Below are positions 8,675 to 35,619 of a DNA stretch of 35,619 nucleotides, in pieces; positions within the stretch are counted from its first letter, which is position 1, and every line of letters begins with the position of its first letter. The notes under the pieces are model-generated. The model was not told the origin of the DNA, made no database searches, and saw only the letters and a program-made list of their open reading frames with translations. The DNA comes from Burkholderiales bacterium (GTDB lineage Bacteria; Pseudomonadota; Gammaproteobacteria; Burkholderiales; SG8-39): assembly GCA_919902965.1 (NCBI GenBank), contig CAKKSJ010000059.1:1-35619 (forward strand). The letters run 5' to 3'. A program made the position numbers and the translations under genes.

Positions 8675-10504
8675 ATGAGCAAGGAACAAGCCAAACCCGA
8701 GACCGCAGTTGCTGACTCGGCAAAAATTTTCGCCGAAGTGGCCGAGCGCTCCAGTCGCATCATGGGCGATTTCCTCGAGCGCCAGGCCGAAGCGAAAGAC
8801 CCGGGCCTCAGCGACGAGTTCGGCATAGGCAAGGCGTTCATGGACATGTCGGCGCTGATGCTCGCCAAGCCGCAGCAGCTCGCCGAGGCGCAGATGAACA
8901 TGTTCCGGGATTACACGCGTCTGTGGCAAAACAGCTGGATGCAGATGATGGGGCAGAAAACCGAGCCGGTCGCCGCGCCGCGCAAGGGCGACAACCGTTT
9001 TCGCCACGAGGACTGGGAAAACCATTTTCTGTTCGACTATGTCAAGCAATCCTATCTGATCGCCGCGCGCCACATCCACCAGGCCGTGTCGCAGGTCGAG
9101 AACCTGCCGCCGGAGGATCGCAAGAAAGTGGATTTTTTCACGCGGCAGTACATCGACGCCTTGTCGCCTTCGAATTTTGCGCTGACCAATCCGGAAGTCG
9201 TGCGCGAAACCCTCGCTTCGGGCGGGCAGAACCTGCTGCGCGGCCTGAACAACCTGCTCGCCGACATCGAGCGCGGAGACGGACAGCTGCAGATCAGCAT
9301 GACCGACCCCAAGGCGTTCAAAATGGGCAAGAACATCGCCACCACGCCGGGCAAGGTGGTATACCAAAATGATTTGATGCAGCTGATCCAGTACCAGCCG
9401 AGCACCAAAAAAGTTTACAAACGGCCCTTGCTGATCATTCCGCCCTGGATCAACAAATACTACATACTCGACCTGCGCGAGTCGAATTCCTTCATCAAGT
9501 GGGCGGTGGATCAGGGGCACACGGTGTTCGTGATTTCCTGGGTGAATCCGGGCGCGGAATTCGCGGGCAAGGGCTTCGAAGATTACCTGCACCAGGGCCC
9601 CGACGATGCGCTGGCCGCGATCGAAAAGGCCAGCGGCGAGAAACAGGTCAATGTGATCGGCTACTGCCTCGGCGGGACCCTGCTAGGCGCCGCACTGGGG
9701 GCGATGGCCGCGAAAAAGGACACGCGCGTCGCCAGCGCGACTTTCTTCGTTTCGCTGCTCGATTTCTCCATACCCGGTGAACTGGGCGTATTCATCGACG
9801 AGAAACAGGTGGAGAACCTGGAGCGGCGCATGAATGAGCGCGGCTATCTCGAAGGTTCGGAGATGGCGGGCACCTTCAACATGCTGCGCTCGAACGACCT
9901 CGTCTGGTCCTTCGTGGTGAACAACTACCTGATGGGCAAGGATCCGTTCCCCTTCGATCTGCTCTACTGGAACTCGGATTCGACGCGCATGCCGGCGAAA
10001 ATGCACAGCTTCTACCTGCGCAATATGTACCTGGCCAACAAGCTGAAGGATCCGGGCGGTATCAGCCTGGACGGCGTGCCTGTCGATATCAGCAAGATCA
10101 AGATTCCGGCCTACTTCATTTCTACCGCCGAGGATCACATCGCGCCGTGGAAATCGGTGTACAAGGGCGCGCGCGTCCTGTCCGGAAAAGTACGTTTCGT
10201 GCTCGGCGGCTCGGGCCATATTGCCGGTATTGTCAATCCACCCGCCGCGAAAAAATATTGCTACTGGATCAATCCGGAGTTTCCGGAAACTTCCGATGCG
10301 TGGTTGAGCACCGCTACGCGCCACGAAGGCTCATGGTGGCCCGACTGGCAGGCCTGGATGGACGCGAACAGCGGCGCTGCCAAGGTCGCGGCGCGCGTGC
10401 CCGGGGACGGCAAACTCAAGGTGATCGAGGACGCGCCGGGCAGCTACGTCAGCCTGCGCCTGGGTGCGGAAAAAACAAAGCGAAAAACCGCGCCCAAGAA
10501 ATAG
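8675..10504 (+). CDS. phaC: class I poly(R)-hydroxyalkanoate synthase
   Basis: 609-aa ORF with the lipase-box-like GYCLGG, the conserved RFxxxxW N-terminal region and the C-terminal GGSGHIAG motif. GCGGAG lies upstream of the ATG. Confidence 0.9.
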   Translation: MSKEQAKPETAVADSAKIFAEVAERSSRIMGDFLERQAEAKDPGLSDEFGIGKAFMDMSALMLAKPQQLAEAQMNMFRDYTRLWQNSWMQMMGQKTEPVAAPRKGDNRFRHEDWENHFLFDYVKQSYLIAARHIHQAVSQVENLPPEDRKKVDFFTRQYIDALSPSNFALTNPEVVRETLASGGQNLLRGLNNLLADIERGDGQLQISMTDPKAFKMGKNIATTPGKVVYQNDLMQLIQYQPSTKKVYKRPLLIIPPWINKYYILDLRESNSFIKWAVDQGHTVFVISWVNPGAEFAGKGFEDYLHQGPDDALAAIEKASGEKQVNVIGYCLGGTLLGAALGAMAAKKDTRVASATFFVSLLDFSIPGELGVFIDEKQVENLERRMNERGYLEGSEMAGTFNMLRSNDLVWSFVVNNYLMGKDPFPFDLLYWNSDSTRMPAKMHSFYLRNMYLANKLKDPGGISLDGVPVDISKIKIPAYFISTAEDHIAPWKSVYKGARVLSGKVRFVLGGSGHIAGIVNPPAAKKYCYWINPEFPETSDAWLSTATRHEGSWWPDWQAWMDANSGAAKVAARVPGDGKLKVIEDAPGSYVSLRLGAEKTKRKTAPKK

Positions 10505-10552
10505 ACGCGAGATGCGGAGATCAGACGTTCTGGCGTGGTGCGATGGCGCCGG

Positions 10553-10747
10553 CTAGACCAGCCTGCCGAGCAGGGTCAGCGCGACTGACAGCAGAATGGT
10601 GGTGGTAAAAGGCAGGTAGTAGTCTCTGCCCTTGTGTCTCAGGGTAATGTCGCCGGGCAGGCGCCCCAGGCCCAGTTTCCTGAGCCAGGGCGTGCACAGG
10701 GTCAGCACCGACAGGGCGACCAGCAGGGTCAAAATCCACTTCAGCAT
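10553..10747 (-). CDS. DUF2905-family small membrane protein
   Basis: 64-aa ORF with two hydrophobic segments flanking LPGDI...G...YYLPF, the pattern I associate with DUF2905. Confidence 0.65.
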   Translation of the reverse strand: MLKWILTLLVALSVLTLCTPWLRKLGLGRLPGDITLRHKGRDYYLPFTTTILLSVALTLLGRLV

Positions 10748-15376: not shown

Positions 15377-16261
15377 ATGCAACTAAACTGGCCATATGAA
15401 GCTGCGACGCCGCCGCGGGCAGGCATCGCCCGGTTTACCCAGCCGGAATCGAATATCTGCCTCGATTTTCACGGCGACCCGCGGGCGGCGCGGCTCGTCG
15501 TGTTCTCAGACGGCAATCATCACATGGCGCTGGCTGAGTCGCTGGCGCTGTTTCGCGCGCGGTATCCGGCGGTCGACGACATTTTCTATACCACCACCCC
15601 GCCGCGCGTGATTGTGGAGGCGTTCGCGTCGGGCGCGCTGTTGCTGGGCAATCTCAAATTGTCACTTGCTCCGCATGTGTTCATCAGCCCGGCGCCGGTA
15701 CTTGAGCGCCTGCGCAAAGACGGTCGCCTGCGCGAGCATGTGCCATTCGTGACCAGCCGCGGCAGCGTGATGTTGCTGCGCAAAGGCAATCCAAAGCGCA
15801 TTTTGGACGCCGCCGATCTTGTGCGCGAGGATGTGCGCATCTTTCTTTCCAACCCGGTGAACGAAAGCGTGAGTTTCGAGGCGTATGTGGCGACGCTGCG
15901 CGCCATCGCAGCCAGCCGCGGGCTCGACTACGGATTTATCGACCCGGCGCCGGGCTCATCGAGGCGCGTGGTGTATGGCGACTGTATCCACCATCGCGAG
16001 GCACCGCAATGCCTGGTCGACGACCGCGCCGATGTAGCGATCGTCTATTATCACCTCGCGTTGCGCTATGTCCGAATATTTCCGGAGTTGTTTGATTTCA
16101 TCGCGTTGACCACCGACGGCGATCCGGCTCAGGTCGTCAGCCCTGCCCACCTGGGACTGGTCGGTGACGGTGGGGAGTGGGGCGTGCGTCTGAGCGAATT
16201 CCTGCTTGGCGACGAGGTTGCCGCGGTGTACCGGTACCACGGCCTCGACCCTGTCCGCTAG
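15377..16261 (+). CDS. periplasmic-binding-protein-fold (ModA/anion-binding-like) protein without a signal peptide
   Basis: 294-aa ORF. LVVFSDGNHH...FISPAP...ADVAIVYYHLA resembles the layout of type II PBP (molybdate/sulfate-binding) proteins. No hydrophobic leader is present. The functional call is weak. Confidence 0.5.
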   Translation: MQLNWPYEAATPPRAGIARFTQPESNICLDFHGDPRAARLVVFSDGNHHMALAESLALFRARYPAVDDIFYTTTPPRVIVEAFASGALLLGNLKLSLAPHVFISPAPVLERLRKDGRLREHVPFVTSRGSVMLLRKGNPKRILDAADLVREDVRIFLSNPVNESVSFEAYVATLRAIAASRGLDYGFIDPAPGSSRRVVYGDCIHHREAPQCLVDDRADVAIVYYHLALRYVRIFPELFDFIALTTDGDPAQVVSPAHLGLVGDGGEWGVRLSEFLLGDEVAAVYRYHGLDPVR

Positions 16262-18871: not shown

Positions 18872-19627
18872 ATGAACCAGAAAGTTATCGCGATATCCAC
18901 GGCGCCGCAGCTTGCGGCCGCCGCAGACGGGACGCACGCCGCCCCGACGCTGATCGCCCCGTCCAATTTTCTGGCCCAGCTCGACGCGAACGAGGCAGCC
19001 GGCCTGCAGGCGATTGCGATAGCGCGCCATTACGCCAAGGGCGACTATGTGTTTCGCTGCGGCGGTCCGGGCCATAACGTCTATTTCCTGCGCAGCGGGA
19101 GGATCAAGATCCATCAGCTTTCGCCGCTCGGGCGCGAGGTGATTCTGTGGTTCTGCTTTTCGGGCGAAATATTCGGGCTCGCCGAAGCGGCGCGCGGCGG
19201 CGAGCGCGCCGTCAACGCGCAGGCTTGCGAGGCGTCCGAAGTGCTGGCGGTCGCACAGGACAAATTTGGGAACTATCTAGACCATCATCCGCATGTGGCG
19301 AAGCTGAGCATGCAGGTGCTGTCCTCGCGCTTGCGCGTGCTGGGCGAAATGTTTGTGAATCTGGTCGCCGATGACGTCAACACGCGCATCGGCAAGCTGA
19401 TACTGCGCTTGAGCGCACGCTACGGAACGCGTGTGGGCAAGGAGATTTTCCTCAACATCCCGCTGACGCACCAGGAGATCGCCGACATGATCGGCACCTC
19501 GCGCCAGACCGTGACCAGCGCGCTGGGCGCGCTGAAGCGGCAGGGGGTGCTGAGCATAGACAATCGCCGCATCCACATCGAAAGCGAGGAACTGTTGAAC
19601 GAGCTTGCGCGCGACGGCGCTCGCTAG
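18872..19627 (+). CDS. Crp/Fnr-family transcriptional regulator (high-GC paralog)
   Basis: A cNMP-binding-like beta-roll (YVFRCGGPGHNVYFLRSGRIKI) plus a C-terminal HTH (LTHQEIADMIGTSRQTVTSAL). There is no FNR-type N-terminal Cys cluster. Confidence 0.85.
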   Translation: MNQKVIAISTAPQLAAAADGTHAAPTLIAPSNFLAQLDANEAAGLQAIAIARHYAKGDYVFRCGGPGHNVYFLRSGRIKIHQLSPLGREVILWFCFSGEIFGLAEAARGGERAVNAQACEASEVLAVAQDKFGNYLDHHPHVAKLSMQVLSSRLRVLGEMFVNLVADDVNTRIGKLILRLSARYGTRVGKEIFLNIPLTHQEIADMIGTSRQTVTSALGALKRQGVLSIDNRRIHIESEELLNELARDGAR

Positions 19628-19711
19628 TGTTTCGGGGGTTCTGCCGGACTGTTTTTTCGGTCGCTCCGGCACGCGCATACCCGGCAACAGGCGCATAATG
19701 GCCGGATAACT

Positions 19712-20392
19712 ATGGACGCTCTGTGGTATCTGCATGAACAAGATTTCTTTTCCGGCTTGAACGCCGAAAAGAAGGCGTTCATCTCTCATTCAAAAAAGAG
19801 ATCCATCAAGAGAAATGTATATCTGTTCAGTCAGGGAGAGGCCGGTGATTCCGTCTTTTATCTCGAGAGCGGCGAGGTGCGGATTTCCCGCCTGACTCCG
19901 CATGGAAAAGAGTCGATTGTATTCATACGGCATGCCGGTGAACTATTCGGTCTGGCCGAAGCCATAGGCGGCGTAGCAAGGACTTGCAGCGCCCAGGCCA
20001 TAAGCGCGTGTCGTTTGTATGAGATTCAGCGAATGGAGCTCGAAGAACTGCTTTCACGGCACTGGGCTCTCTCCAGGCGGGTGATGGAAGTTCTCGGAGG
20101 CCGCTTGAGGTATCTCGGAGAACAGTTGGGCAATTTGATGTCCTGCGACGTGACTACCAGATTGTCGAGACTGCTTTTTTACTTGAGCTGCTATAAGCAG
20201 ATGGATCCCGAAGTCTGGAATGCGTCTGATGCCATCCCGGTGAAACTCACCCAGGAACAAATGGCGTCGATGATAGGATCATGCCAGCAAACCGTAAGCG
20301 CGGTTCTCAAGCAATTCGAGATGGAAGGCCTGATCCGAGTTTCCCGCAATCGTCGGGAAATCATCATCCTCAAACCCGTAAGCCTGGTCTAA
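19712..20392 (+). CDS. Crp/Fnr-family transcriptional regulator (low-GC paralog, first gene of the island)
   Basis: A beta-roll (YLFSQGEAGDSVFYLESGEVRISR) plus an HTH (LTQEQMASMIGSCQQTVSAVL). There is no FNR Cys cluster. It is AT-richer than its neighbour. Confidence 0.85.
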   Translation: MDALWYLHEQDFFSGLNAEKKAFISHSKKRSIKRNVYLFSQGEAGDSVFYLESGEVRISRLTPHGKESIVFIRHAGELFGLAEAIGGVARTCSAQAISACRLYEIQRMELEELLSRHWALSRRVMEVLGGRLRYLGEQLGNLMSCDVTTRLSRLLFYLSCYKQMDPEVWNASDAIPVKLTQEQMASMIGSCQQTVSAVLKQFEMEGLIRVSRNRREIIILKPVSLV

Positions 20393-20719
20393 AGTTATCC
20401 ATAGCGGTTGAGTCAGCTTCTGCCGGTTCCTAATCCGGCAACTATCGTCCAAGCGATAGAACCCACTTGTCAATTAGGGTTATCGTACCGCCAACTTCGG
20501 AGTCCACTGAAATCGTTTTGCGATGATTGGCGACCCGTTCCTGCGTAAAAGATTACCGTCTATCAATCGTCAATCGGCACGGTCTGAGCTCCGGCACTGT
20601 GCATGAGATGCGTTCCAGTCACCCCGGCCCACGCCTTCCGGTCGAAATCCCGGACGGCACGCCGGCCTGAGAGATTATTACCGGCAGGACCTTCCAGATT
20701 CGTCTAAGGAGAAAAGCAT

Positions 20720-21271
20720 ATGAAAAACGCGTTGGTTTCAGCAGTCATGGCCGTATTCTTTTTGGGCATGGGGGGAGTGGCGTCTGCAGCAGACATCACG
20801 CCGAAGATGCAGCAGAAAATCGATGTCTACAAGAAGAAGGCGGTCGAATGGGCCGCTGATGCGAAATTGATAGAAGCGGTGAAGCAGAGCAATGCCAAAG
20901 GCCCGGTGACGGCGAATGCCAAGTGGCGCGAACTGAAGGAAACAGACCCCGTTGTTCAGGGTTTGGTAAGCAGCCCGACAGGCCAGCTTTTGACCCAATG
21001 GATGAATGCCGACGCCAAGGGCATCAACAAAATCGTGCTTAGCGGCGACAAAAGCCACCGCGTCGCATTCACCTCTATGCCGGCCATCTACATCGGCAAG
21101 ACCAAGCCCAATTTCGACGAGTCCTTCGGCGGCAAGGTGTGGCAGCAGGGCGAGTCCAAGCCAGATCCGAGCACTAACATCGATACGGTGCAAATTTCCG
21201 CACCGGTGAAAGATGGAAACAAAATAATCGGCGTGCTTCTTGTCAGCCTCACCGCGGCGAACTTGAAGTAG
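20720..21271 (+). CDS. secreted single Cache/PDC-like ligand-binding protein
   Basis: 183-aa ORF with AAGGAG 8 nt upstream and a signal peptide (...GMGGVASA/AD). The C-terminal ISAPVKDGNKIIGVLLVSL is typical of Cache-fold beta strands. It has no TM or output domain. Confidence 0.6.
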   Translation: MKNALVSAVMAVFFLGMGGVASAADITPKMQQKIDVYKKKAVEWAADAKLIEAVKQSNAKGPVTANAKWRELKETDPVVQGLVSSPTGQLLTQWMNADAKGINKIVLSGDKSHRVAFTSMPAIYIGKTKPNFDESFGGKVWQQGESKPDPSTNIDTVQISAPVKDGNKIIGVLLVSLTAANLK

Positions 21272-21319
21272 GTGGCGATGAAAACGTCCGCAGGAGTAAT
21301 CAATAGAAAGGGAGCGGTT

Positions 21320-22840
21320 ATGAACAAATTGGATACGCCGATTTCCGTCCCGGCCAGTGGCTTCTTCGGCCGGTTCGTAGATAACATTCGTGCACGTGAG
21401 GGCACGCCGGCCAAGACATTGATCGGGTTTTTTGCCGCTTGGGCGGCGTTTTTCTTCATTCTCTGGGTCATGCCGCTACCCGCAGGCATGACCCCCGCCG
21501 GAAAAGCGACCCTGGCGGTTCTGGTATGGGCCACGATCATGTGGATAACCGAAGCCATACCCGTCGGTGTATCAGGACTGATTATTCCCATGCTTCTGGT
21601 TATGGGCGGGGCGGCCGCCAAGTTTCCGGCAGCCGCAAGCGGTTTCGCTCAACCCGTTGCTTTCCTGACCCTGGCGGCGTTCTTGTTTGCCGCCATCATT
21701 CAAGCCGCCGGACTCGATCGGCGTATTGCCATCACGCTGATGAAAAAATTTCGCGTAAAAGAAGTCGGCGGTGTGATTTGGGCGATGTTCGGCGTCAACC
21801 TGGTGCTGTCGTTCATCATCCCGGCGGCGAACGCCAGGGCTGCCACTTTGCTGCCGGTCGTGAACGGCATTACCAGCTTGTTTGGCGACACGCCGGAGGA
21901 GCGCGCCGGAAAGAAAGCGATAGTCATACAGTCGCTGGTGTACGGCTCGATGATCAGCGGCATGTGCATCATGACCGCGCATCTGCCCAATCTGATTCTG
22001 GTGGGGCTGTTTGACACGGAACTGGGCTACACCCTCTCGTATTTCAACTGGTTCCTGCTGCAATGGCCTTACCTGGGCATGTTTGTCATAACGCAGTGGT
22101 GGGTGCAACACTACTTCAAGACGCGCGGAGTCATGATCCCCGGCGGTTTGGAAAAAGTAAGGGAAATGCACACACAACTGCCCAAAACCAGCCAGACGGA
22201 ATGGTTGATATTGGCGGTATTCGCGCTGGTCGGGCTGCTGTGGATGACGGAGTCCGTTCATCACATTAAGGCGCAGAACGCGGCCTTGATGGGCATTGCG
22301 ATTGCCTTCATTCCGGGGATGTTCGACTTCAAATGGAAAATGCTCCAGGACCGGACGATCTGGGGGACATGGTTGCTGCTGGCCGGCGCCTTGTCCATGT
22401 CCGCCACCATGGGGACCTCCGGTCTGGCGGGATGGCTGGCCGACGTGATTCACCCTGTTGCCGCAGGGCGTTCGTGGTGGCTAATCCTGCTCATACTCAT
22501 GGTTGGCACGCATATCATCCGGCTGGGAATGCTGTCCAATATCGCGGCCATCGCCATGCTGGCACCCGTGCTGATAGCGCTGGGGCCCAAGTTCGGGCTG
22601 CATCCGGTTGCTTTCACCATGCTCATTTCCGATACGGATACCTTTGCCTATATCCTGCCGACGCAGATTACCGCCGCGGTTATCGCCTACAGCAGCGGCA
22701 CCTTCAGCATGGCGGATTATGCCAAGGTGGGATGGGTGTCTGTGCTCATCGCCATTGCCTACGGCATCCTGGTCATGGCGCCCTGGTACGCGTTTATGGG
22801 TATTCCGGTCTGGAATCCTTCAGCACCCTGGCCATTCTGA
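21320..22840 (+). CDS. SLC13/DASS-family anion:cation symporter
   Basis: The start is set at ATG 21320 (AGGGAG 5 nt upstream; the ORF-track start at 21272 directly abuts the previous stop codon). It is a polytopic protein with duplicated hairpin motifs (PAANARAATLLPV and LPTQITAAV) of the kind seen in DASS/ArsB-NhaD superfamily permeases. Confidence 0.8.
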   Translation: MNKLDTPISVPASGFFGRFVDNIRAREGTPAKTLIGFFAAWAAFFFILWVMPLPAGMTPAGKATLAVLVWATIMWITEAIPVGVSGLIIPMLLVMGGAAAKFPAAASGFAQPVAFLTLAAFLFAAIIQAAGLDRRIAITLMKKFRVKEVGGVIWAMFGVNLVLSFIIPAANARAATLLPVVNGITSLFGDTPEERAGKKAIVIQSLVYGSMISGMCIMTAHLPNLILVGLFDTELGYTLSYFNWFLLQWPYLGMFVITQWWVQHYFKTRGVMIPGGLEKVREMHTQLPKTSQTEWLILAVFALVGLLWMTESVHHIKAQNAALMGIAIAFIPGMFDFKWKMLQDRTIWGTWLLLAGALSMSATMGTSGLAGWLADVIHPVAAGRSWWLILLILMVGTHIIRLGMLSNIAAIAMLAPVLIALGPKFGLHPVAFTMLISDTDTFAYILPTQITAAVIAYSSGTFSMADYAKVGWVSVLIAIAYGILVMAPWYAFMGIPVWNPSAPWPF

Positions 22841-23005
22841 GTGGCGATTCGAGTTGAAGTCCTCCGCGCAACCATGGCCGGAGGACTGCAAGGGGAAATT
22901 AAATCCAGCAAGTGCCATTCGGGTTCAAGGTCATCGCTACCTGTCGGTTCCCGGACTTAGTGCTTCCAGCACGGCTACGAAATAAATTTGACGGAGCTTG
23001 AAACA

Positions 23006-24841
23006 ATGAAAAAAGATCTCCCAAAAACCATCGCCGAGGTTGAAGAGATAAGGATAGAGACCGATCTCCTTATCATCGGCGGAGGCAACTCCGGTTGCTT
23101 TGTCGCGATCGAGGCGAAGGAGAAGAACCCCAACATCGATGTGACCATCATGGAAAAGGCGCACATCGACCGCAGCGGCGCCCTGGCCGCGGGCATGGAT
23201 GCCATCAATACCTATATCGGCGAAGGCGAGACGCCGGAATCGATCGTCGCCTGGAGCCGGGCGCAGGTCGGTGGCGGCCCCCTGAGAGAAGACCTTGCCC
23301 TGAGCAATGCCGCTATCCTGAACCAGTGCGTGGAGTCTCTCGAAGCCTGGGGAGTGCCGTTCAAAAAAGACGAGAAGGGTAGATACAAGAGAAGGGGAAG
23401 ATTCGATATCTCCATTCATGGAGAACAGTTGAAGCCGATCATCGCCGAGAAGACGAAGAGCTACAACCCACGGATATTGAACCGGGTTGCGGCGACCAAT
23501 TTGCTCAAAGACGGAGACCGCGTCATCGGCGCCACGGGCTTCGGCATCAGGGACGGCAAATTTTACGTAATCAAGGCCAAGGCCACCATCGTGTCTACCG
23601 GCGGCGCCGCCGGCCTGTACCGTTCGGCGACCAACGACGGCACAACCTCGCACCACCAGATGTGGATGAACCCTTTCAACGTGGGCACGGGATATGCCAT
23701 AGGCATCAGGGCCGGTGCCGAGTTTACGCTCATGGAACAGCGCTGGTGCGCGACCAGGGTGAAGGATTTCTGCGGACCGGTGGACACCATCTCCGTAGGC
23801 TACAAGGCGAAAATGATCAACGCCAAGGAAGAGTTGATCCTGGATTCACCGCGATACCGCGGTCTCGGAGGCGACACGGCGCCGCGTTACATACGGGCCA
23901 ACGCGCCCATGAGCGAATGGAGCGAAGGCAGAGGGCCGACCTTCGTGGATACGCGCCAACTCTCTCCGGGCCAGGTCAAGGACCTCAAGATCGACTATCT
24001 CAACGAACGGCCTACCTATGTGCTTTTCCTGGCGGCACGGGGGCAGGATCCGGCGAAAGAGCCCCTGGAAATCTACGGCAGCGATCCCTACATCGTCGGC
24101 GGTCACACGGCCAGCGGCTACTGGGTCGATGGCGACAGAATGGCGACCCTTGCGGGCCTGTTCGCGGCCGGCGAGTGCGCGGGCGGGATGCCGAACAAGT
24201 TTGTCGGCGGATGCGCGGCGGAGGGAGTCCTCGCCGCGCGCGGGACGCTAAAGCATATCTCGGGCATGGATCACGGCAACGTCGATCAAAATCAGGTCGC
24301 GGCGGAAAAGGAAAGGGTGTTCGCGCCGCTCTTGCGCGGCGCGACCATGGAAGCCAAATACACCCTGCCCGTCGGGCAGGACCCGCGCTGGCAGTATGAC
24401 GCAGTCACGCCGGAGGAGATGGAGGAGCGGCTGCAAAGACTCATGGACGAGTACGCCGGCGGGGTGGGCCAGTTCTTCAAGTGCAACGAGGAGCAGCTCA
24501 ACTACGCCCTCAAGCATATCGGGATGATGAAGAAACAGGTGAACAAGCTGTTTGCGACCAGCCTGCACGATCTCGTCCTTGTCCACGACGTTGTCGACCG
24601 TCTCGACGTCGCCGAGGTGGTGGTCCTGCATTTGCGCGAGAGAAGGGAGTGCAGATGGCCCGGTTGGCAGACGCGGAGCGATTACCCCGAGGTCGATCCG
24701 AGCCTCGACTGTTACATCAACTCGAGAAAGAATCTCGAGACGGGCGAGATCGAGATGCTGAAACGGCCTTACCAGCAGGTTCTTCCCGGGGACCGGACGA
24801 AGGCTCCGTCGCCGATTCCGCTTTCCGCAGAGAAGGCATAA
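23006..24841 (+). CDS. adenylylsulfate (APS) reductase alpha-subunit-like FAD flavoprotein, divergent
   Basis: The start is set at ATG 23006 (GGAG upstream; the ORF track begins at TTG 22988). It has the dinucleotide fold DLLIIGGGNSG. Blocks SGALAAGMDAINTYIG, MEQRWCATRVKDFCGPV, EGRGPTFVDT, DPYIVGGHTASGYW, DEYAGGVGQFF and ERRECRWPGWQTRSDYP...KRPYQQVLPGD align by eye with AprA blocks I remember, including the AprA-specific C-terminal domain. Confidence 0.75.
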   Translation: MKKDLPKTIAEVEEIRIETDLLIIGGGNSGCFVAIEAKEKNPNIDVTIMEKAHIDRSGALAAGMDAINTYIGEGETPESIVAWSRAQVGGGPLREDLALSNAAILNQCVESLEAWGVPFKKDEKGRYKRRGRFDISIHGEQLKPIIAEKTKSYNPRILNRVAATNLLKDGDRVIGATGFGIRDGKFYVIKAKATIVSTGGAAGLYRSATNDGTTSHHQMWMNPFNVGTGYAIGIRAGAEFTLMEQRWCATRVKDFCGPVDTISVGYKAKMINAKEELILDSPRYRGLGGDTAPRYIRANAPMSEWSEGRGPTFVDTRQLSPGQVKDLKIDYLNERPTYVLFLAARGQDPAKEPLEIYGSDPYIVGGHTASGYWVDGDRMATLAGLFAAGECAGGMPNKFVGGCAAEGVLAARGTLKHISGMDHGNVDQNQVAAEKERVFAPLLRGATMEAKYTLPVGQDPRWQYDAVTPEEMEERLQRLMDEYAGGVGQFFKCNEEQLNYALKHIGMMKKQVNKLFATSLHDLVLVHDVVDRLDVAEVVVLHLRERRECRWPGWQTRSDYPEVDPSLDCYINSRKNLETGEIEMLKRPYQQVLPGDRTKAPSPIPLSAEKA

Positions 24842-24930
24842 GGAATAGAAACGCAGGAATTCGTGTCCAGGATTTCATTCTGCCCTGCCGGTCTCGGCCG
24901 CGGATTGCTTAACTTACAGAGGACAAACAC

Positions 24931-25257
24931 ATGCCGGTCTATGTCGTAAAAGATAAATGCGATGGGTGCAAGGGAAAGGACGAACCCCTGTGCGAGCAGA
25001 TATGCATCGGCGACCTCATGACCTTGAACGCGGACACGGGAAAGGCGTACTGCCGCTCCCTCAGGGATTGCTGGGACTGCATGTCCTGCACCAAGATATG
25101 CCCCAAGGGGGCCATAGAGCAGCGCATTCCCTATCAGCTCGGATACCACGGCGCGAAGCTCATTCCCATGATGGGCACCGACTCCATAACCTGGACCTGC
25201 GTCGACATCGACGGCAAGGTGGAGAGATTTTCCTTTCGCACGAGAAACAAACACTGA
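24931..25257 (+). CDS. APS reductase beta-subunit-like 2x[4Fe-4S] ferredoxin, short form
   Basis: 108 aa with AGAGGA 7 nt upstream. MPVYVVKDKCDGCKGKDEPLCEQIC and CWDCMSCTKICPKGAI mirror the two AprB cluster motifs, including the Trp in CW(E/D)C. It lacks the long C-terminal tail of canonical AprB. Confidence 0.7.
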   Translation: MPVYVVKDKCDGCKGKDEPLCEQICIGDLMTLNADTGKAYCRSLRDCWDCMSCTKICPKGAIEQRIPYQLGYHGAKLIPMMGTDSITWTCVDIDGKVERFSFRTRNKH

Positions 25258-25272
25258 ACCGCCTGCCGCCCT

Positions 25273-27381
25273 ATGAGCGATATCACAATCGGCGTCTTCC
25301 TCTGCAGCTGCGCAGGCGAAATTGAAAAGACGATCGCTCTCGACGTGCTCGCACAGGAGGCATCCGGGCGACCCGGGGTGGTCTCCGTCAGCAAGGATTC
25401 CTGTCTCTGTTCGGAACGCGGAATAGACGCCATACGGGAAGACATCAACAAGTACGAACTCGATCGGGTGCTGATCGCGGCCTGTTCGCCTGCCCTGAAA
25501 ACCAGAGAATTCGCGGATCTCGGCATCAACAAATATCTGGTCGAGCGCGTGAACTTGCGCGAGCAATGCAGCCGGTGCCATCCCGATAGTCCCGAAAATG
25601 CGACAAAAAAGGCAAGGGCGATGCTGGCGATGTCTTTGGAGAAAATCAGGCACTCCAAAGCCCTCGAACCGGTAGTGGTGCCCGCGGTCAAGACGGCGCT
25701 GGTGGTGGGCGGAGGGGTTGCCGGCATCAATGCCGCTCTTGACCTGGCGGGAGCGGGCGCCGAGGTGTTCCTGATCGAAAAGAACCCTCATCTCGGCGGG
25801 AAGGTATCCGAACTGCACCGCTATTATCCCCGCCTGTGCCCGCCGTCCTGCGGACTGGAACTCATGTATTCCAGGCTGGAGAGTAACCCGCACATTCATG
25901 TCCTTACCTCGTCCGAGGTTGAGAACCTGAGCGGCTCGCCGGGTAATTTTTCTGTTTCAATAAAGACCACCTCGTCCGACGCAATCAAATCTCCGGAAAA
26001 GGATCAGGTGCGTACGATCATCGCCGGTGCCGTTGTTGTCGCAACCGGATGGGAACCTTTTGATCCGACGCCGCTTAGCGAATACGGCTACGGCAGACTC
26101 GCAAAGGTCATCACGAACCTGGATTTCGAAAGAAACGCCCGGGAACAGGCGCAATTCCTCGGGCAACGGAAGAAAACCGCCTTTATACAATGCGTCGGCA
26201 GCCGCGATGAACGCCATCTGCCGTACTGCTCCGATGTCTGCTGCATGGTAAGCATCAAGCAAGCGCTTTTGCTCAAACAGGCCAATCCCGATAACGAGGT
26301 AACTATTTATTACAACGATATCCGGACGCCGGGCGAGTACGAAGCTGTGTACCGACAGGCGAGAGCCAGCGGGATACATTTTGTTAAAGGCATCCCTTCC
26401 GAACTGCGACAGGACGCGCAGGGAAGAATAAGCGTTGCCGTATTCGACCTCATAGCAGGCGAAAGGACCGAATTCGCCGCCGACCTGGTTGTACTCGCGA
26501 CCGGTATGAAAGCTTCCCGCGGAACGACGGCGCTGAAGAACGCAATCGGCCTGGCCACGAACAAAGACGACTTCATCGAGTCGCACTTGCAATGTCATCC
26601 CCAGGACAGCCAGCGGGAGGGCATATTTACCGCCGGCTGCTGCCGCGCGCCCATGGACGTCTCGAGGTCGATCGAGAGCGCAGGAGCGGCGAGCGCCAAG
26701 GCGCTGCGCTATCTTCAAGGCGAAATTGCGGTCAGTCCCGATTATCCGGTCGTCGATATCCTGAAGTGCGACCGCTGCAAACGCTGCGTGGAGGAGTGTC
26801 CGTTCAAGGCCTACGCCTACGATGACAAGGGATTTCCGCAAGTTGATATTCTCAAGTGCCGCGCCTGCGGCATCTGCATGGGGGGCTGCCCCATCGGCGC
26901 GATTTCGCTCGGCGAACTCGGCATAGAGCAACTTTCGGGAATGTTAGACGTCCTGGACACGTCCTATCTTGGAGAGGATGAACCGGTAATCCTCGGATTT
27001 CTGTGCAAGAACGACGCCTACCGGGCGGCGGATGACGCGGGACTGAACAGCATCTCCTACCCACCAAACCTGATCAGCGTCATGGTCCCCTGCTCGGGCG
27101 CCGTGAACGGCATGATCATCTCCGAGGCCATTTCAAAAGGCGTGGACGGGATTCTGCTCGCCGGATGCGCCGATAACCAGTGTCATTATCTGCACGGGAG
27201 CACGCTGGCAAAAACGAGATTGGCGGATGTCTCGAACAAGCTCAAGGAGATGTATCTGGAGCCTGAAAGAGTCCGCTTCGCGAGCATAGGCAGGGACGAT
27301 CCGGAGAAGTTTGCCGCGACGGTAAAGGAATATGTAGAGGAGCTGAAGCAGTTGGGGAAAAATCCGCTGAGGATCCAGTGA
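25273..27381 (+). CDS. HdrA/QmoB-like FAD and FeS protein with a C-terminal MvhD-like domain
   Basis: 702 aa. It combines an HdrA N-domain (IGVFLCSCAGEI...AACSP...REQCSRCH), an FAD motif (VVGGGVAGINAALDLAG), the HdrA cluster motif QCVGSRDERHLPYCSDVCC, a 2x[4Fe-4S] ferredoxin (CDRCKRCVEECP, CRACGICMGGCP), and an MvhD-like end (FLCKNDAY...VPCSGAVN...LLAGC...CHY). No inserted ferredoxin domain is present. Confidence 0.8.
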   Translation: MSDITIGVFLCSCAGEIEKTIALDVLAQEASGRPGVVSVSKDSCLCSERGIDAIREDINKYELDRVLIAACSPALKTREFADLGINKYLVERVNLREQCSRCHPDSPENATKKARAMLAMSLEKIRHSKALEPVVVPAVKTALVVGGGVAGINAALDLAGAGAEVFLIEKNPHLGGKVSELHRYYPRLCPPSCGLELMYSRLESNPHIHVLTSSEVENLSGSPGNFSVSIKTTSSDAIKSPEKDQVRTIIAGAVVVATGWEPFDPTPLSEYGYGRLAKVITNLDFERNAREQAQFLGQRKKTAFIQCVGSRDERHLPYCSDVCCMVSIKQALLLKQANPDNEVTIYYNDIRTPGEYEAVYRQARASGIHFVKGIPSELRQDAQGRISVAVFDLIAGERTEFAADLVVLATGMKASRGTTALKNAIGLATNKDDFIESHLQCHPQDSQREGIFTAGCCRAPMDVSRSIESAGAASAKALRYLQGEIAVSPDYPVVDILKCDRCKRCVEECPFKAYAYDDKGFPQVDILKCRACGICMGGCPIGAISLGELGIEQLSGMLDVLDTSYLGEDEPVILGFLCKNDAYRAADDAGLNSISYPPNLISVMVPCSGAVNGMIISEAISKGVDGILLAGCADNQCHYLHGSTLAKTRLADVSNKLKEMYLEPERVRFASIGRDDPEKFAATVKEYVEELKQLGKNPLRIQ

Positions 27382-27382
27382 G

Positions 27383-27823
27383 ATGGACAATGCACTCATT
27401 GACGGAGCAAGCCTGAAATCCTGCTATCGCTGCGGAAAATGTACTTCCGGCTGCGAGGTGAACCGCATCGATCCTTCATTTCAACCGCACAGGCTGCTTC
27501 AGCTCATCGCCAGGGGCGCGGTGGATGAACTCATCGATGGCGACGCAATTTGGAAATGCACGACCTGTTTCACCTGTGCCGAGAGATGTCCGCAGGGAAT
27601 AGCGGTAACCGATATTCTCTGGAGCTTGAGGGCGCTGGCGTTTAGATCCTGCCGTAACTCGGGGCTGCTCGAGGCGCAAAAGGCTGCCCTGTTCAAGACC
27701 GGCAGGCTGTATCCGGTGACTGGCCTTGACCATAAGAAACGCGAGAAGGCGGGGCTTCCTCCTCTGGCGGAGAACGCAACTCTCATAAGCCGCATATTTG
27801 ATGCAGCGAAAGCGGGCGGATAG
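27383..27823 (+). CDS. heterodisulfide reductase subunit C-like 2x[4Fe-4S] protein
   Basis: 146 aa with CYRCGKCTSGCE and CTTCFTCAERCP motifs. The start is 2 nt after the upstream stop. Confidence 0.8.
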   Translation: MDNALIDGASLKSCYRCGKCTSGCEVNRIDPSFQPHRLLQLIARGAVDELIDGDAIWKCTTCFTCAERCPQGIAVTDILWSLRALAFRSCRNSGLLEAQKAALFKTGRLYPVTGLDHKKREKAGLPPLAENATLISRIFDAAKAGG

Positions 27824-27828
27824 TTATT

Positions 27829-28692
27829 ATGAAATACGCCTTATACCTGGGCTGTGCAACGCCGGTCAGGGCCCTGAAATACGAAATATCGACCAGAAAC
27901 GTGGCCAAACGTCTGGGCATAGAACTCGTCGACCTTCCTGAATTCAGCTGCTGCGGGTTTCCGGTCAAGTCTATGGATCTGTTTGCCGCGCTGCTCATGG
28001 CTGCCCGCAATCTCGCCCTGGCGGAAGAGCGCGGTCTGGACATCATAGGCTTGTGCACCGGATGCGTAGCGGTCCTGTCGGAAGCGAAACTGCAATTGGA
28101 AGATGAGAAGCTGAGGGACAGGGTCAACGAGAAGCTGAAGACGCTGGGAGTACCGGAATACCGCCAGGGGGTCGGCGTCAAGCATTTTGCGAGATTCTTG
28201 AACGAGGATTACGGACTTGATGCGCTGAGCAAAGAGATCGGCGCCCCGTTAAAGTCTTTGAAGTTTGGCATTCATTATGGCTGCCATTATGCGAAGCCGA
28301 GCCATGCGCATGATCACTTTGATGACCCGTCAAACCCTGTCTCGCTTGACAAACTGATACAGGGCGCCGGCGCAGAGACGATCGACTACCCGGAGAAAAA
28401 CCTCTGCTGCGGCCTGACGATCCGGGGCGCAGCCGAAGATGTAAGCGTGAAGCTCGCCGCGGAAAAGCTCGAAGCCCTGTCGAACAGAGGGGCCGACGCC
28501 ATGGTGGTCGCTTGTCCCTCCTGCTGCATTGCCTATGAAAACAATCAACAGCTGGCCGGAAGAAAAATGGGAAAAGAATTCAAGCTCCCGGTCGTTTATT
28601 TTACCCAGGTACTCGGCTGTGCCCTGGGGCTGAAGGAAGAGGATCTCGGGTTTGAGTTCAACCGGGTTGAATTTCACCCGGCTGCGCGCTAA
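27829..28692 (+). CDS. heterodisulfide reductase subunit B-like protein with two CCG domains
   Basis: 287 aa with two Cys-rich CCG repeats (GC...SCCGFP...CTGC and GCHY...LCCGL...CPSCC). Confidence 0.8.
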   Translation: MKYALYLGCATPVRALKYEISTRNVAKRLGIELVDLPEFSCCGFPVKSMDLFAALLMAARNLALAEERGLDIIGLCTGCVAVLSEAKLQLEDEKLRDRVNEKLKTLGVPEYRQGVGVKHFARFLNEDYGLDALSKEIGAPLKSLKFGIHYGCHYAKPSHAHDHFDDPSNPVSLDKLIQGAGAETIDYPEKNLCCGLTIRGAAEDVSVKLAAEKLEALSNRGADAMVVACPSCCIAYENNQQLAGRKMGKEFKLPVVYFTQVLGCALGLKEEDLGFEFNRVEFHPAAR

Positions 28693-28862
28693 AGATCACC
28701 TGCTAGCCTGCAGCTTTTCTTAAAAATCAGCGCTTGCCGTTTGCAGTGGTGAGAGCAGACCCTCCTCGAGCGAATTCCGCCCCCGGAAATCGGGCTTGCA
28801 GTGCAGGCCGCGGGGCGGTATCGTCGCTCGACCTTGCAGTTCGAACCGGCCAATTCTTTCCC

Positions 28863-34857: not shown

Positions 34858-35379
34858 TCAGGCCGTTGTGACGGGCGGCGCCGAATCCAGGCGCCGCCTG
34901 AAAAGGGGATAGGGCCGCTCCACCGAGGCCTGGTAGGTTTCGCCGAAATCGTCAAAGGCGTGCAGCGCTTTATCGGGATCCTGATCCGCGCGCAGAGCAA
35001 AGGCGTCGAAGCCGCAGCGGGAAAGATAAAAGAGCTGGTCGCGCTGCACGTCGCCGATGGCGCGCAGTTCGCGGCGATAGCCGTAGCGTTCACGCAGCAG
35101 GCGCGCCAGCGAATAGCCGCGGCCGTCGGTGAAGCGAGCAAGGCGGATGGCGATCAGGTGAAAATGCGCCAGATCGGGCGCGATCGCAGCGGGGTCTGCG
35201 TCGGCCTCCAACCAGACGCCGACGCGGCCGAGGCGGAACGACAGCGCGTCGCGCTCCTTCGCCCACAGATCGAGCGGCACGATCACATCGCCGCTGAACG
35301 GCAGCGCCCCAGGCGCATTCTGCTCAAGCAGCTGCCAGCTGTCTTGGATTACGATGCGGTGTTTGATGAGTCGTTGCAT
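34858..35379 (-). CDS. DUF934-family protein (sulfite-reductase-associated)
   Basis: 173 aa. FTDGRGYSLARLLRERYGY...LRAIGDV is the DUF934 core as I recall it. It lies immediately downstream of a sulfite reductase gene. Confidence 0.75.
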   Translation of the reverse strand: MQRLIKHRIVIQDSWQLLEQNAPGALPFSGDVIVPLDLWAKERDALSFRLGRVGVWLEADADPAAIAPDLAHFHLIAIRLARFTDGRGYSLARLLRERYGYRRELRAIGDVQRDQLFYLSRCGFDAFALRADQDPDKALHAFDDFGETYQASVERPYPLFRRRLDSAPPVTTA

Positions 35380-35619
35380 ACGCGTGGTCCCTGAAAGCTT
35401 CGATGCCGATGCGGCGCACCGTGTCGATGAAACGCTCTGCGTCGTGTTCGCGCTCGGCGAGATAGACTTCGATCAGCCTCTCGACGATCTCGGGCACCTG
35501 CTCCTGCGCAAACGCGGGGCCGATTACTTTGCCGAGCGAGGCGTTCGCGCCCTGCGCGCCGCCTATGGAGATCTGGTAGAACTCCTCGCCCTGCTTGTCC
35601 ACGCCGAGAATGCCGATGT
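35324..35619 (-). CDS. cysI: ferredoxin-type nitrite/sulfite reductase hemoprotein, C-terminal fragment (5' end outside the window)
   Basis: The frame is open to the window edge (...IGILGVDKQGEEFYQISIGGAQG...). The context with DUF934 supports the call. Its 3' end overlaps the DUF934 start by 56 nt. Confidence 0.6.
   Translation of the reverse strand, partial: IGILGVDKQGEEFYQISIGGAQGANASLGKVIGPAFAQEQVPEIVERLIEVYLAEREHDAERFIDTVRRIGIEAFRDHAYATTHQTPHRNPRQLAAA

Follow-up and report, generated by a model that had tools for sequence, protein, structure and literature searches.

The window, a stretch of DNA of 35,619 nucleotides (contig CAKKSJ010000059.1 of the Burkholderiales bacterium assembly GCA_919902965.1), carries three adjacent Hdr-type genes that encode an HdrA protein fused to an MvhD domain (HdrA/MvhD, 702 amino acids, aa), HdrC and HdrB. 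The trio is probably the dedicated soluble electron-transfer partner of AprA'B', a pair of AprAB-like proteins encoded immediately upstream; with a Crp-family regulator and an anion importer, trio and pair would make up one transferable cassette of Dsr bacteria that feeds the reductive release of sulfite (rough probability of this reading from sequence comparison: 0.55). The original prediction, made from the letters of the window, had described a soluble HdrA/MvhD-HdrC-HdrB module with no QmoA, QmoC or membrane anchor nearby. This observation is confirmed; the interpretation that was attached to it is, overall, partly supported. The module belongs to the Hdr/Qmo-type electron modules; its partner is defined, and a lipoyl protein is plausible as its substrate.

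Hdr-like modules are common in bacteria, but for most of them no substrate is known. For this one, conserved gene order defines which partner enzyme, importer, regulator and candidate thiol carrier go with it, so that an "HdrABC of unknown function" becomes a testable pathway. The cassette is found in dozens of sulfite or sulfate reducers, in disproportionators and in at least one lineage of sulfur oxidisers, and is almost perfectly tied to dsrAB. It may mark a missing reaction of the sulfur cycle that gives sulfite from an overlooked substrate. Cultured carriers exist (Neomoorella stamsii DSM 26217, for example).

Conservation of the cassette

A set of 57 non-redundant loci was assembled from context look-ups and from the scan of one genome per species. 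The hosts belong to Nitrospirota (Thermodesulfovibrionia, Dissulfurispiraceae), Thermodesulfobacteriota, Bacillota (including Neomoorella stamsii DSM 26217 and Moorella naiadis) and Chloroflexota. The common gene order is: Crp, an optional periplasmic binding protein, an importer of the DASS or TTT (TctCBA) family, AprA', AprB', HdrA/MvhD, then a variable tail. Three kinds of tail were found: HdrC-HdrB; an HdrC-like protein with a sulfhydrogenase beta/gamma (AsrAB)-like NAD(P)H pair; none. AprA' is present in 54 of the 57 loci, HdrA/MvhD in 53, AprB' in at least 44, Crp in 43, DASS in 39, HdrC in 32 and HdrB in 25 (plus six in which only an antisense open reading frame, ORF, was clustered). 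TctCBA replaces DASS in six or seven loci. The module had been described as unusual for its proteobacterial background; it is not a one-off but half of a cassette found in about 57 loci of four phyla. Its proposed coupling to the AprAB-like pair is supported by the cassette that both share in more than 50 loci.

In four Bacillota loci, a 396-aa polyferredoxin-MvhD protein stands in place of HdrA. Because these variants exchange HdrA for a polyferredoxin-MvhD protein, the MvhD domain is the constant neighbour of AprB'. The Desulfocapsaceae variant carries the AsrAB-like NAD(P)H pair. A more distant AprA'-AprB'-HdrA/MvhD trio, whose AprA' is 41% identical to that of the window, occurs in Peptococcaceae (loci L059-L067, e.g. 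Desulfocucumis palustris, L065:101-14662), where it directly precedes, on the same strand, a sat-size gene and, about 2 kb downstream of the trio, aprB-aprA-qmoA-qmoB-hdrC-hdrB. The Peptococcaceae trio and the canonical aprBA-qmoAB-hdrCB operon are separate, coexisting systems.

Architecture and solubility of HdrA/MvhD, HdrC and HdrB

The coordinates of the genes and domains are given in the table. The three ORFs were taken from the ORF call of the window. The intergenic gaps are 15 nucleotides (nt) between AprB' and HdrA, 1 nt between HdrA and HdrC and 5 nt between HdrC and HdrB; of the two tight gaps reported earlier, the second stands and the first is 1 nt, not 2.

Features of the window
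Feature	Position	Strand	Evidence
Compositional island with the entire cassette	19630..28733	.	GC content 0.52-0.60; flanks 0.61-0.67, genome 0.625
Crp-family regulator (Crp2), first island gene	19712..20392	+	Pfam cNMP_binding, HTH_Crp_2; GC 0.515
Secreted 183-aa protein (Cache-like in relatives)	20720..21271	+	N-terminal hydrophobic signal, residues 3-27
DASS (Na:sulfate/dicarboxylate symporter family) permease	21320..22840	+	PF00939, 214.8 bits; TIGR00785, 202.5 (cut-off 198.6)
AprA' (AprA-like flavin adenine dinucleotide, FAD, subunit)	23006..24841	+	NF005331, 584.5 (cut-off 557); TIGR02061 (aprA), 378 (below cut-off 641.75)
AprB' (tail-less 2x[4Fe-4S] subunit, 108 aa)	24931..25257	+	TIGR02060 (aprB), 93.6 (below cut-off 135.65); positions 1-106 of 132
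HdrA/MvhD, 702 aa	25273..27381	+	ORF call
HdrA N-terminal domain, aa 1-140	25273..25692	+	[4Fe-4S]: C11, C13, C46, C71; aligned with HdrA residues 11-150
HdrA thioredoxin-reductase-type FAD domain, aa 141-485	25693..26727	+	GGGVAG motif; C307, C319, C323, C324
HdrA C-terminal ferredoxin domain, aa 492-545, 2x[4Fe-4S]	26746..26907	+	Pfam Fer4 matches; C499/502/505/509, C529/532/535/539
Fused MvhD domain, aa 570-695	26980..27357	+	PF02662 FlpD, 129.4 bits; [2Fe-2S] ligands C578, C607, C632, C637
HdrC-like subunit, 146 aa, 2x[4Fe-4S], soluble	27383..27823	+	ORF call; TIGR03290, 91.8 (below cut-off 160); two CxxCxxCxxxC motifs
HdrB-like subunit, 287 aa, two CCG domains, two non-cubane [4Fe-4S] sites, soluble	27829..28692	+	ORF call; PF02754 twice; TIGR03288, 238.1 (below cut-off 345.15)

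By Pfam, the 702-aa protein has a Rossmann/FAD region from residue 142, a 2x[4Fe-4S] ferredoxin (492-545) and FlpD/MvhD (573-695). Its top NCBIfam models are HdrA2 (585 bits, cut-off 1100), HdrA and, for the tail, VhuD, all below cut-off. The best match among solved structures is a methanogen HdrA (8rvu_a, 355 bits), aligned in two blocks: residues 3-231 with chain residues 11-243, and 237-559 with 315-650. Residues 244-314 of the chain, the inserted ferredoxin domain of HdrA, have no counterpart. Residues 570-695 match the MvhD chains 8rvu_F and 5odc_D. Pfam and the 8rvu_a alignment thus agree with the domain content first proposed: HdrA N-domain, FAD domain without the inserted ferredoxin, C-terminal 2x[4Fe-4S] ferredoxin and MvhD. 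In relatives of 751-756 aa, a 54-aa insert with eight cysteines is found at exactly the gap point; the sub-clade of the window is without it. The deletion point lies between aa 233 and 234 (nt 25971|25972). Most HdrA relatives in cassettes (750-800 aa) retain the eight-cysteine ferredoxin insert.

The remaining cluster cysteines of HdrA/MvhD are invariant in an alignment of 18 homologues: those of the N-terminal domain, of the CxGSRD...YCSxVCC motif of the FAD domain, of both ferredoxin motifs and the four of MvhD. Both CCG motifs of HdrB are intact (C9...C41C42...C76xxC79 and C152...C193C194...C229xxC232). The invariant cluster cysteines, together with more than 50 syntenic loci, indicate that the trio consists of real genes beyond chance.

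No transmembrane segment was found in HdrA/MvhD, HdrC or HdrB by 19-residue hydropathy. The sole peak above 1.6 in the trio is the GGGxxG Rossmann strand of HdrA (residues 134-152). The earlier statement that all three proteins are soluble and offer no link to quinone therefore holds. No second HdrA-like (QmoA) gene, QmoC gene or membrane anchor was found in the window, in line with the reported absence of QmoA beside the 702-aa protein.

Phylogeny

A maximum-likelihood tree was built from 84 HdrA-type proteins (sHdrA and BamE are not among them). QmoB forms a clade of its own (98 in the Shimodaira-Hasegawa-like approximate likelihood ratio test, SH-aLRT), which includes the Gram-positive QmoB proteins and a further set with an Archaeoglobus veneficus protein. 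All cassette HdrA/MvhD proteins are outside it, in a sister group (99) with classic HdrA. The resemblance to QmoB that had been proposed is thus one of architecture (HdrA plus MvhD), not of descent. The HdrA/MvhD of the window belongs to a Nitrospirota sub-clade (100) and adjoins those of L009 and L014.

In the AprA' tree, the cassette proteins form one clade (100), sister to MtPAPSR, the reductase of Methanothermococcus thermolithotrophicus for 3'-phosphoadenosine 5'-phosphosulfate (PAPS). In both trees the window is sister to L009 within the Nitrospirota sub-clade with a support of 100; the agreement is at the level of the major clades. Since the AprA' and HdrA trees share the sub-clade and the nearest neighbour, the two halves of the cassette travelled together. 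The identity to the Nitrospirota counterparts is 82-90% for AprA' and 51-75% for HdrA.

The partner enzyme AprA'B'

AprB' has ten cysteines, Trp48 and no C-terminal tail, and is 88-96% identical among the Nitrospirota cassettes. The best solved structure for AprA' is the alpha subunit of MtPAPSR (8a8o_A, 487 bits); loop 104-123 resembles that of MtPAPSR. N74, W234, R265, H398 and R317 are invariant. In adenosine 5'-phosphosulfate (APS) reductase, the equivalents of Asn74, Trp234, Arg265, His398 and Arg317 hold the sulfo group and the flavin (PMC2211403). Eight changes are fixed in the clade (50 of 50 sequences): Y95W, E141R, Q145D, F261W, G274D, F277S, L278V and H446N. They are in the nucleotide channel. 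The nucleotide pocket of AprA', as far as alignment can tell, is altered in a clade-invariant manner.

AprAB-like proteins have already been described (PMC8477390, PMC7174415, PMC10322725). No mention of Hdr coupling of AprAB-like proteins was found in PMC8477390 or PMC10322725, and no description of a coupling to HdrA/MvhD-HdrCB was found in the papers searched.

Association with Dsr and putative substrate

A dsrA gene was found in 48 of the 50 cassette-bearing genomes (46 above cut-off), including the Chloroflexota and Bacillota carriers, and in none of 14 control genomes. In L052, L054 and L055, dsrA-dsrB...dsrC is directly downstream of the cassette. The cassette probably lets Dsr bacteria release sulfite from an imported sulfur compound. 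The invariant catalytic residues N74, W234, R265 and H398 of AprA' and the TauE-family gene in the island of L112, the closest relative, also speak for a link to sulfite. AprA' would make, or less probably consume, sulfite; the imported sulfo-anion involved would not have to be APS or PAPS.

Thirteen of the 50 carriers lack Sat; 12 of these, including the isolates Neomoorella stamsii DSM 26217 and Moorella naiadis, also lack CysD. No sat, cysC or PAP phosphatase gene was found in any of the 57 cassette loci. The carriers without Sat and CysD, the absence of sat and cysC from the cassettes, the TTT importers and the altered pocket together indicate that the enzyme is not simply APS- or PAPS-dependent. 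A more specific proposal is tentative: the cassette could encode an unrecognised cytoplasmic "sulfo-anion reductase", which would cleave sulfite from a compound that is taken up and is neither APS nor PAPS; organosulfonates, sulfate esters, thiosulfate and polythionates are examples. The reaction would be driven by the soluble Hdr proteins and, in this lineage, by NAD(P)H via lipoyl-GcvH. If true, sulfur compounds would thereby have a new way into Dsr-based metabolism.

Lipoyl proteins and the proposed electron chain

The insert-less set comprises nine distinct loci (HdrA of 700-705 aa). A gcvH gene is found in four of them (149-155 bits, NCBIfam cut-off 117): in L112 and L113 it is upstream of Crp, whereas in L114 and L116 it follows hdrB directly. 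The encoded proteins are of two different GcvH types, in two different positions. A dihydrolipoyl dehydrogenase (Lpd) gene (TIGR01350, 527-538 bits, cut-off 408.8) is found directly after hdrB in L014, L021, L115 and L113. GcvH and/or Lpd are thus encoded in seven of the nine insert-less loci versus none of about 45 insert-bearing ones (Fisher p = 2e-7, uncorrected for shared ancestry). GcvH and TauE are not general features of the cassette: they were found only in the insert-less sub-clade and in L112.

The intact CCG motifs of HdrB point to a thiol/disulfide co-substrate, as had been suggested. Since GcvH or Lpd genes accompany the cassette in seven of the nine closest loci, a lipoyl protein is the best candidate for this thiol, as judged from gene content. 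The sHdr-LbpA system is the precedent for an Hdr-like complex that works with a lipoate-binding protein (PMC6067878, PMC11094781); a lipoyl protein here would be the second known as an Hdr-type thiol substrate. The reported absence of sHdr features and lipoate-binding proteins is true for the window, but does not extend to its closest relatives, seven of nine of which carry GcvH and/or dihydrolipoyl dehydrogenase by hdrB. Of the partners for which a search of the rest of the genome had been suggested, dsrC and the GcvH of a gcvTHP locus (contig C175) were found in the assembly, although the island in the window has no lipoyl gene. This housekeeping copy is the only GcvH of the assembly. Because the island is without gcvH and lpd, the window copy would depend on host proteins such as the C175 GcvH.

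In HdrA, the electron exit to ferredoxin runs through the inserted ferredoxin domain (PMC9012536). With this domain deleted in the 702-aa HdrA, a linear, non-bifurcating chain is expected, and the bifurcation partner that had been offered as an alternative to the thiol is unlikely. The loss of the ferredoxin branch and the gain of the lipoyl-protein/NAD(P)H branch in the same sub-clade point to such a linear chain as well. That loss and gain coincide provides a natural contrast between a possibly bifurcating and a linear Hdr. The Desulfocapsaceae variant reaches NAD(P)H by another adaptor, which supports a reductive role of AprA'.

The proposed chain would run as follows. A dithiol, most probably a GcvH-type dihydrolipoyl protein, would be kept reduced by dihydrolipoyl dehydrogenase and NAD(P)H and would be oxidised at the two non-cubane clusters of HdrB. 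Electrons would pass from HdrB to HdrC and on to the [4Fe-4S] cluster and FAD of HdrA, then from this FAD via the C-terminal ferredoxin to MvhD. MvhD would deliver them to the tail-less AprB' and hence to the FAD of AprA', where sulfite would be reductively freed from the imported sulfo-anion. Gene content, cofactor motifs, solubility, synteny, phylogeny, the association with dsr and that of GcvH/Lpd with the sub-clade are observed, whereas the physical complex, the lipoyl substrate, the direction of flow and sulfite as the product are inferred.

Several points weigh against this chain. A proven PAPS reductase is the sister of AprA', which has also retained the adenine-clamp Arg317; a nucleotide sulfate could therefore be the substrate of AprA'. 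The window island and L009 have neither GcvH nor Lpd, which makes the lipoyl link indirect for the window copy. The GcvH/Lpd association is found in one sub-clade only and represents few independent events (at least three different arrangements). As many hosts are incomplete metagenome-assembled genomes (MAGs), the absence of Sat and CysD carries less weight. Flow from sulfite towards lipoamide or DsrC is conceivable in a sulfur oxidiser. The assembly with the window is 6.6% contaminated, and its aprBA, dsrC and second dsrA are on short contigs (GC 0.594).

Alternative explanations

The most probable alternative is that AprA'B' is an APS or PAPS reductase like MtPAPSR and that the cassette serves sulfate uptake and reduction, assimilatory or auxiliary, with Hdr giving thiol electrons as thioredoxin does for CysH. 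The structural kinship to 8a8o, the similar loop, the NF005331 score above cut-off, the sulfate carriers in the DASS family, the CysP/Sbp-like binding proteins nearby, the sulfotransferase gene in the L114 cassette and the proposal by the DiSCo authors of a role of AprAB-like proteins in sulfur assimilation (PMC8477390) all speak for it. It is nonetheless rather unlikely: two isolates are among the 12 carriers without Sat and CysD, the 57 loci are devoid of sat, cysC and PAP phosphatase genes, some use TTT importers instead of DASS, the channel changes G274D, Q145D, H446N and F277S are fixed in the clade, and sulfide-producing Dsr organisms have little need for sulfate assimilation. An oxidative run of the same chain is unlikely: AprA' would oxidise sulfite from rDsr with an acceptor, and electrons would pass from MvhD through HdrA to HdrBC, which would reduce a disulfide (lipoamide or DsrC) and ultimately NAD+. 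MvhD is indeed the electron entry side of HdrA in Mvh-Hdr (PMC9012536), the host is an rDsr/AprBA oxidiser and sHdr-LbpA is an oxidative Hdr/lipoate system (PMC6067878); yet neither lipoamide nor NAD+ can be reduced by an APS-type couple (-60 mV, PMC3333476), the main hosts of the cassette are sulfite or sulfate reducers and disproportionators, and the importer and periplasmic binding proteins indicate uptake of an external substrate.

It is improbable that the trio takes the place of Qmo in soluble form, as QmoB plus HdrCB after the pattern of Gram-positive sulfate reducers, and that it serves the canonical AprBA of the host and takes electrons from the oxidation of sulfite to APS. The assembly does have canonical aprBA, sat and dsrC (C461, C220) with no QmoA, QmoB or QmoC orthologue, Gram-positive sulfate-reducing bacteria do use aprBA-qmoAB-hdrCB (PMC3333476, PMC8477390) and HdrA plus MvhD is the architecture of QmoB. 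But in more than 50 loci the trio has been passed on together with an AprA'B' of its own, its HdrA/MvhD is outside the QmoB clade, AprA'B'-HdrA/MvhD stands beside aprBA-qmoAB-hdrCB as a separate system in Peptococcaceae, the island is foreign to the order of the host and there is no QmoA, which reportedly is the subunit in contact with AprAB (PMC3333476); moreover, as the MAG is 93% complete, AprM or Qmo may be missing from the assembly only. A flavin-based bifurcating or confurcating complex like MvhADG-HdrABC or HdrA2B2C2, which would couple AprA'B' chemistry, disulfide reduction and ferredoxin, is slightly less probable still. Membership in the HdrA family with HdrA2 as the top NCBIfam match, the insert kept in most cassette relatives and the cassettes without HdrCB, which may use ferredoxin, would fit it; against these, the window copy and its sub-clade have lost precisely the ferredoxin-exit domain and gained NAD(P)H/lipoyl partners instead, and no donor of the hydrogenase or formate dehydrogenase type is found in the cassette. 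Hardly credible is an sHdr-type system oxidising sulfane sulfur. Hdr-like proteins, a sulfur-oxidiser host and GcvH-like genes in relatives recall such a system, but the hdrC1B1A-hyp-hdrC2B2 order is absent, there is a single HdrCB pair, the cassette has no DsrE, TusA or rhodanese genes, and sHdrA (6tjr_A, 349 aa) matches only residues 140-479 of a 702-aa HdrA that also has N-terminal, ferredoxin and MvhD domains. Gene order and HdrA architecture thus already contradict it, and the earlier distinction between this module and the sHdr loci is upheld.

Comparison with known systems

The systems compared are: Qmo (aprBA-qmoAB-hdrCB of Desulfocucumis palustris, L065; QmoABC of Desulfovibrio); methanogen Hdr (HdrA2B2C2 of Methanosarcina acetivorans, NF040770; MvhADG-HdrABC of hydrogenotrophic methanogens, 5odc and 8rvu); sHdr-LbpA (Hyphomicrobium denitrificans, Aquifex); AprAB-like paralogues and MtPAPSR.

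The window trio shares with Qmo an HdrA-like protein with a fused MvhD domain and a presumed electron exchange with an Apr-type enzyme; with aprBA-qmoAB-hdrCB, it also shares genes that adjoin an Apr-type flavoenzyme. QmoC (membrane haem-b/FeS subunit) is absent, and soluble HdrC and HdrB are present, as in the Gram-positive variant. The trio differs in the absence of QmoA, in its partner, which is the paralogous tail-less AprA'B' in the order A-then-B while canonical aprBA is on contig C461, in the position of HdrA/MvhD outside the QmoB clade, and in having its own regulator and importer. The trio may therefore be described as working like a Qmo-type link between an Apr enzyme and cellular reductant, yet by gene content, neighbour and clade it does not fit Qmo.

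The closest sequence relatives of the trio are the methanogen proteins. The HdrA domain plan, with MvhD fused (HdrA2) or bound, the two [4Fe-4S] clusters of HdrC and the two CCG non-cubane sites of HdrB are common to both. HdrA2 was reportedly presented as an HdrA-MvhD fusion by Yan et al. (mBio, 2017). Unlike the methanogen proteins, those of the window score below the HdrA2, HdrB and HdrC cut-offs (585 vs 1100, 238.1 vs 345.15 and 91.8 vs 160, respectively), lack the inserted ferredoxin domain of HdrA and have their MvhD side wired to an AprAB-like enzyme, not to hydrogenase or F420H2. CoM-S-S-CoB is not expected as the substrate of a betaproteobacterial module.

The sHdr-LbpA system is likewise a soluble bacterial Hdr-like complex tied to sulfur metabolism and works with a GcvH-like lipoyl protein, as GcvH and dihydrolipoyl dehydrogenase are encoded by relatives of the cassette (PMC6067878, PMC11094781). 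In contrast, the cassette has neither hdrC1B1A-hyp-hdrC2B2 nor sulfur transferases, no lbpA or gcvH is found in the window island, sHdrA is a 349-aa FAD core only and sHdr has no AprAB-like partner. AprA'B' shares with the AprAB-like paralogues (Neukirchen and Sousa 2021, DiSCo, PMC8477390) a tail-less beta subunit, a shortened alpha subunit, retained catalytic residues and an NF005331 score above cut-off, and has MtPAPSR (8a8o, PMC10322725) as sister clade. In contrast to them, it is set apart in a clade in which particular pocket residues are fixed, and is linked to HdrA/MvhD, Crp and DASS/TTT importers, not to sat, cysC or asr.

Host assembly and acquisition

The assembly is a MAG of 514 contigs (93% complete, 6.6% contaminated). 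Its dsrA is of the oxidative type and 83-87% identical to Burkholderiales, Rhodocyclaceae, Sulfuritalea and Gallionellaceae sequences. It also contains a second dsrA, and dsrC, canonical aprBA and sat (aprBA, dsrC and sat on C461 and C220). The two dsrA copies are on contigs C146 and C370 (531 and 504 bits). Because of the oxidative-type dsrA, dsrC, aprBA and sat, the host is a betaproteobacterial sulfur oxidiser and not the plain respiratory proteobacterium that had been assumed. The betaproteobacterial assignment was given by DsrA; PhaC, whose best matches in a plasmid database were from Azospirillum (61%), was misleading owing to the content of that database. The second dsrA and the C461 genes may reflect strain mixture or contamination.

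No orthologue of the cassette HdrA/MvhD was found in 300 other genomes of the same order, where the best matches are 36-37% identical and of QmoB size. The cassette, judged by such comparisons, is horizontally acquired from a Nitrospirota-type source by a sulfur-oxidising betaproteobacterium.

No QmoA, QmoB or QmoC orthologue was found in the assembly. A tblastn search for QmoA returned only the trio itself and an unrelated double-HdrA protein on C401. The latter belongs to a second Hdr-type system on a short contig (C401:1-3342, minus strand), where a frame of 1009 aa or more comes after the last part of an HdrB-like (CCG) gene; this frame has two HdrA-like FAD domains in tandem and matches the HdrA2 model with 897 bits. 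The best match of the assembly to NF038018 (QmoC) has 115 bits (cut-off 300) and is on C344: it is a TcuB-like FeS/membrane protein beside a TcuA-size gene, unlinked to the cassette, and was rejected as QmoC or membrane anchor. Two other candidates for a hidden anchor, both unlinked to the cassette, were also rejected: an HdrD/DsrK-like protein on C219 and a cytochrome-b/ferredoxin/MvhD-like fusion in an oxidase-type cluster on C332. The C332 fusion (8940-10715, minus strand, 591 aa) comprises a cytochrome b (ExtP/b6-like), a ferredoxin and an MvhD-like C-terminus. Its neighbours encode a cytochrome-b/Fer2/FAD/NAD fusion, a COX1-like oxidase subunit, SCO1 and a UbiA-family prenyltransferase.

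The island and its surroundings

The island is about 9 kb long and has the gene order Crp, Cache-like protein, DASS permease, AprA', AprB', HdrA/MvhD, HdrC, HdrB. Crp2 shares 45-61% identity with the Crp proteins that this cassette encodes in other phyla. Another Crp gene, Crp1 (18872-19627), is host-like (GC 0.63). The secreted 183-aa protein has 73% identical orthologues in L011 and L019, where a weak dCache_1 match is found. At the island borders, direct repeats, tRNA genes and an integrase were looked for without success, and a promoter and terminator scan gave nothing above shuffled sequence. Downstream of the island are TtcA and host-like genes.

The closest relative, L112 (GCA_900218045), has the island at the same insertion site; HdrA and Crp1 are both 92% identical to those of the window. 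In addition, its island encodes GcvH, a TauE-family protein and a response regulator and holds an insertion sequence (IS) remnant that is fused with a second copy of the 3' end of aprB'. The fusion is a chimeric ORF of 153 aa (L112:1122-1583), whose front is a DDE-transposase-like remnant and whose last 40 residues are a duplicate of the AprB' C-terminus (92% identity). It is the sole trace of mobility seen near this type of island. The TauE/SafE-family gene (sulfite/sulfonate exporter-type; L112:4288-5031, minus strand) is between the genes for Crp and the secreted protein. A Sulfotransfer_3 gene (L114:3802-4950, minus strand) is between two Crp genes. Neither is found in the window.

A periplasmic SBP_bac_11 (CysP/Sbp/ModA-like) protein of host-like GC is encoded 3.5 kb upstream of the island (15377-16261, plus strand). 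It is 47-49% identical to binding proteins within the TTT-type cassettes of Desulfocapsaceae (L050, L058) and in L079. An 806-aa gene lies on the opposite strand between this gene and the island. The window breaks off, 6 kb downstream of hdrB, in a minus-strand stretch (34858-35617) with an ORF of DUF934 size and the C-terminal part of a sulfite or nitrite reductase of the NirA/CysI type. As L112 has the full 584-aa gene in the same place, the NirA/CysI-type gene belongs to the host flank, outside the island.

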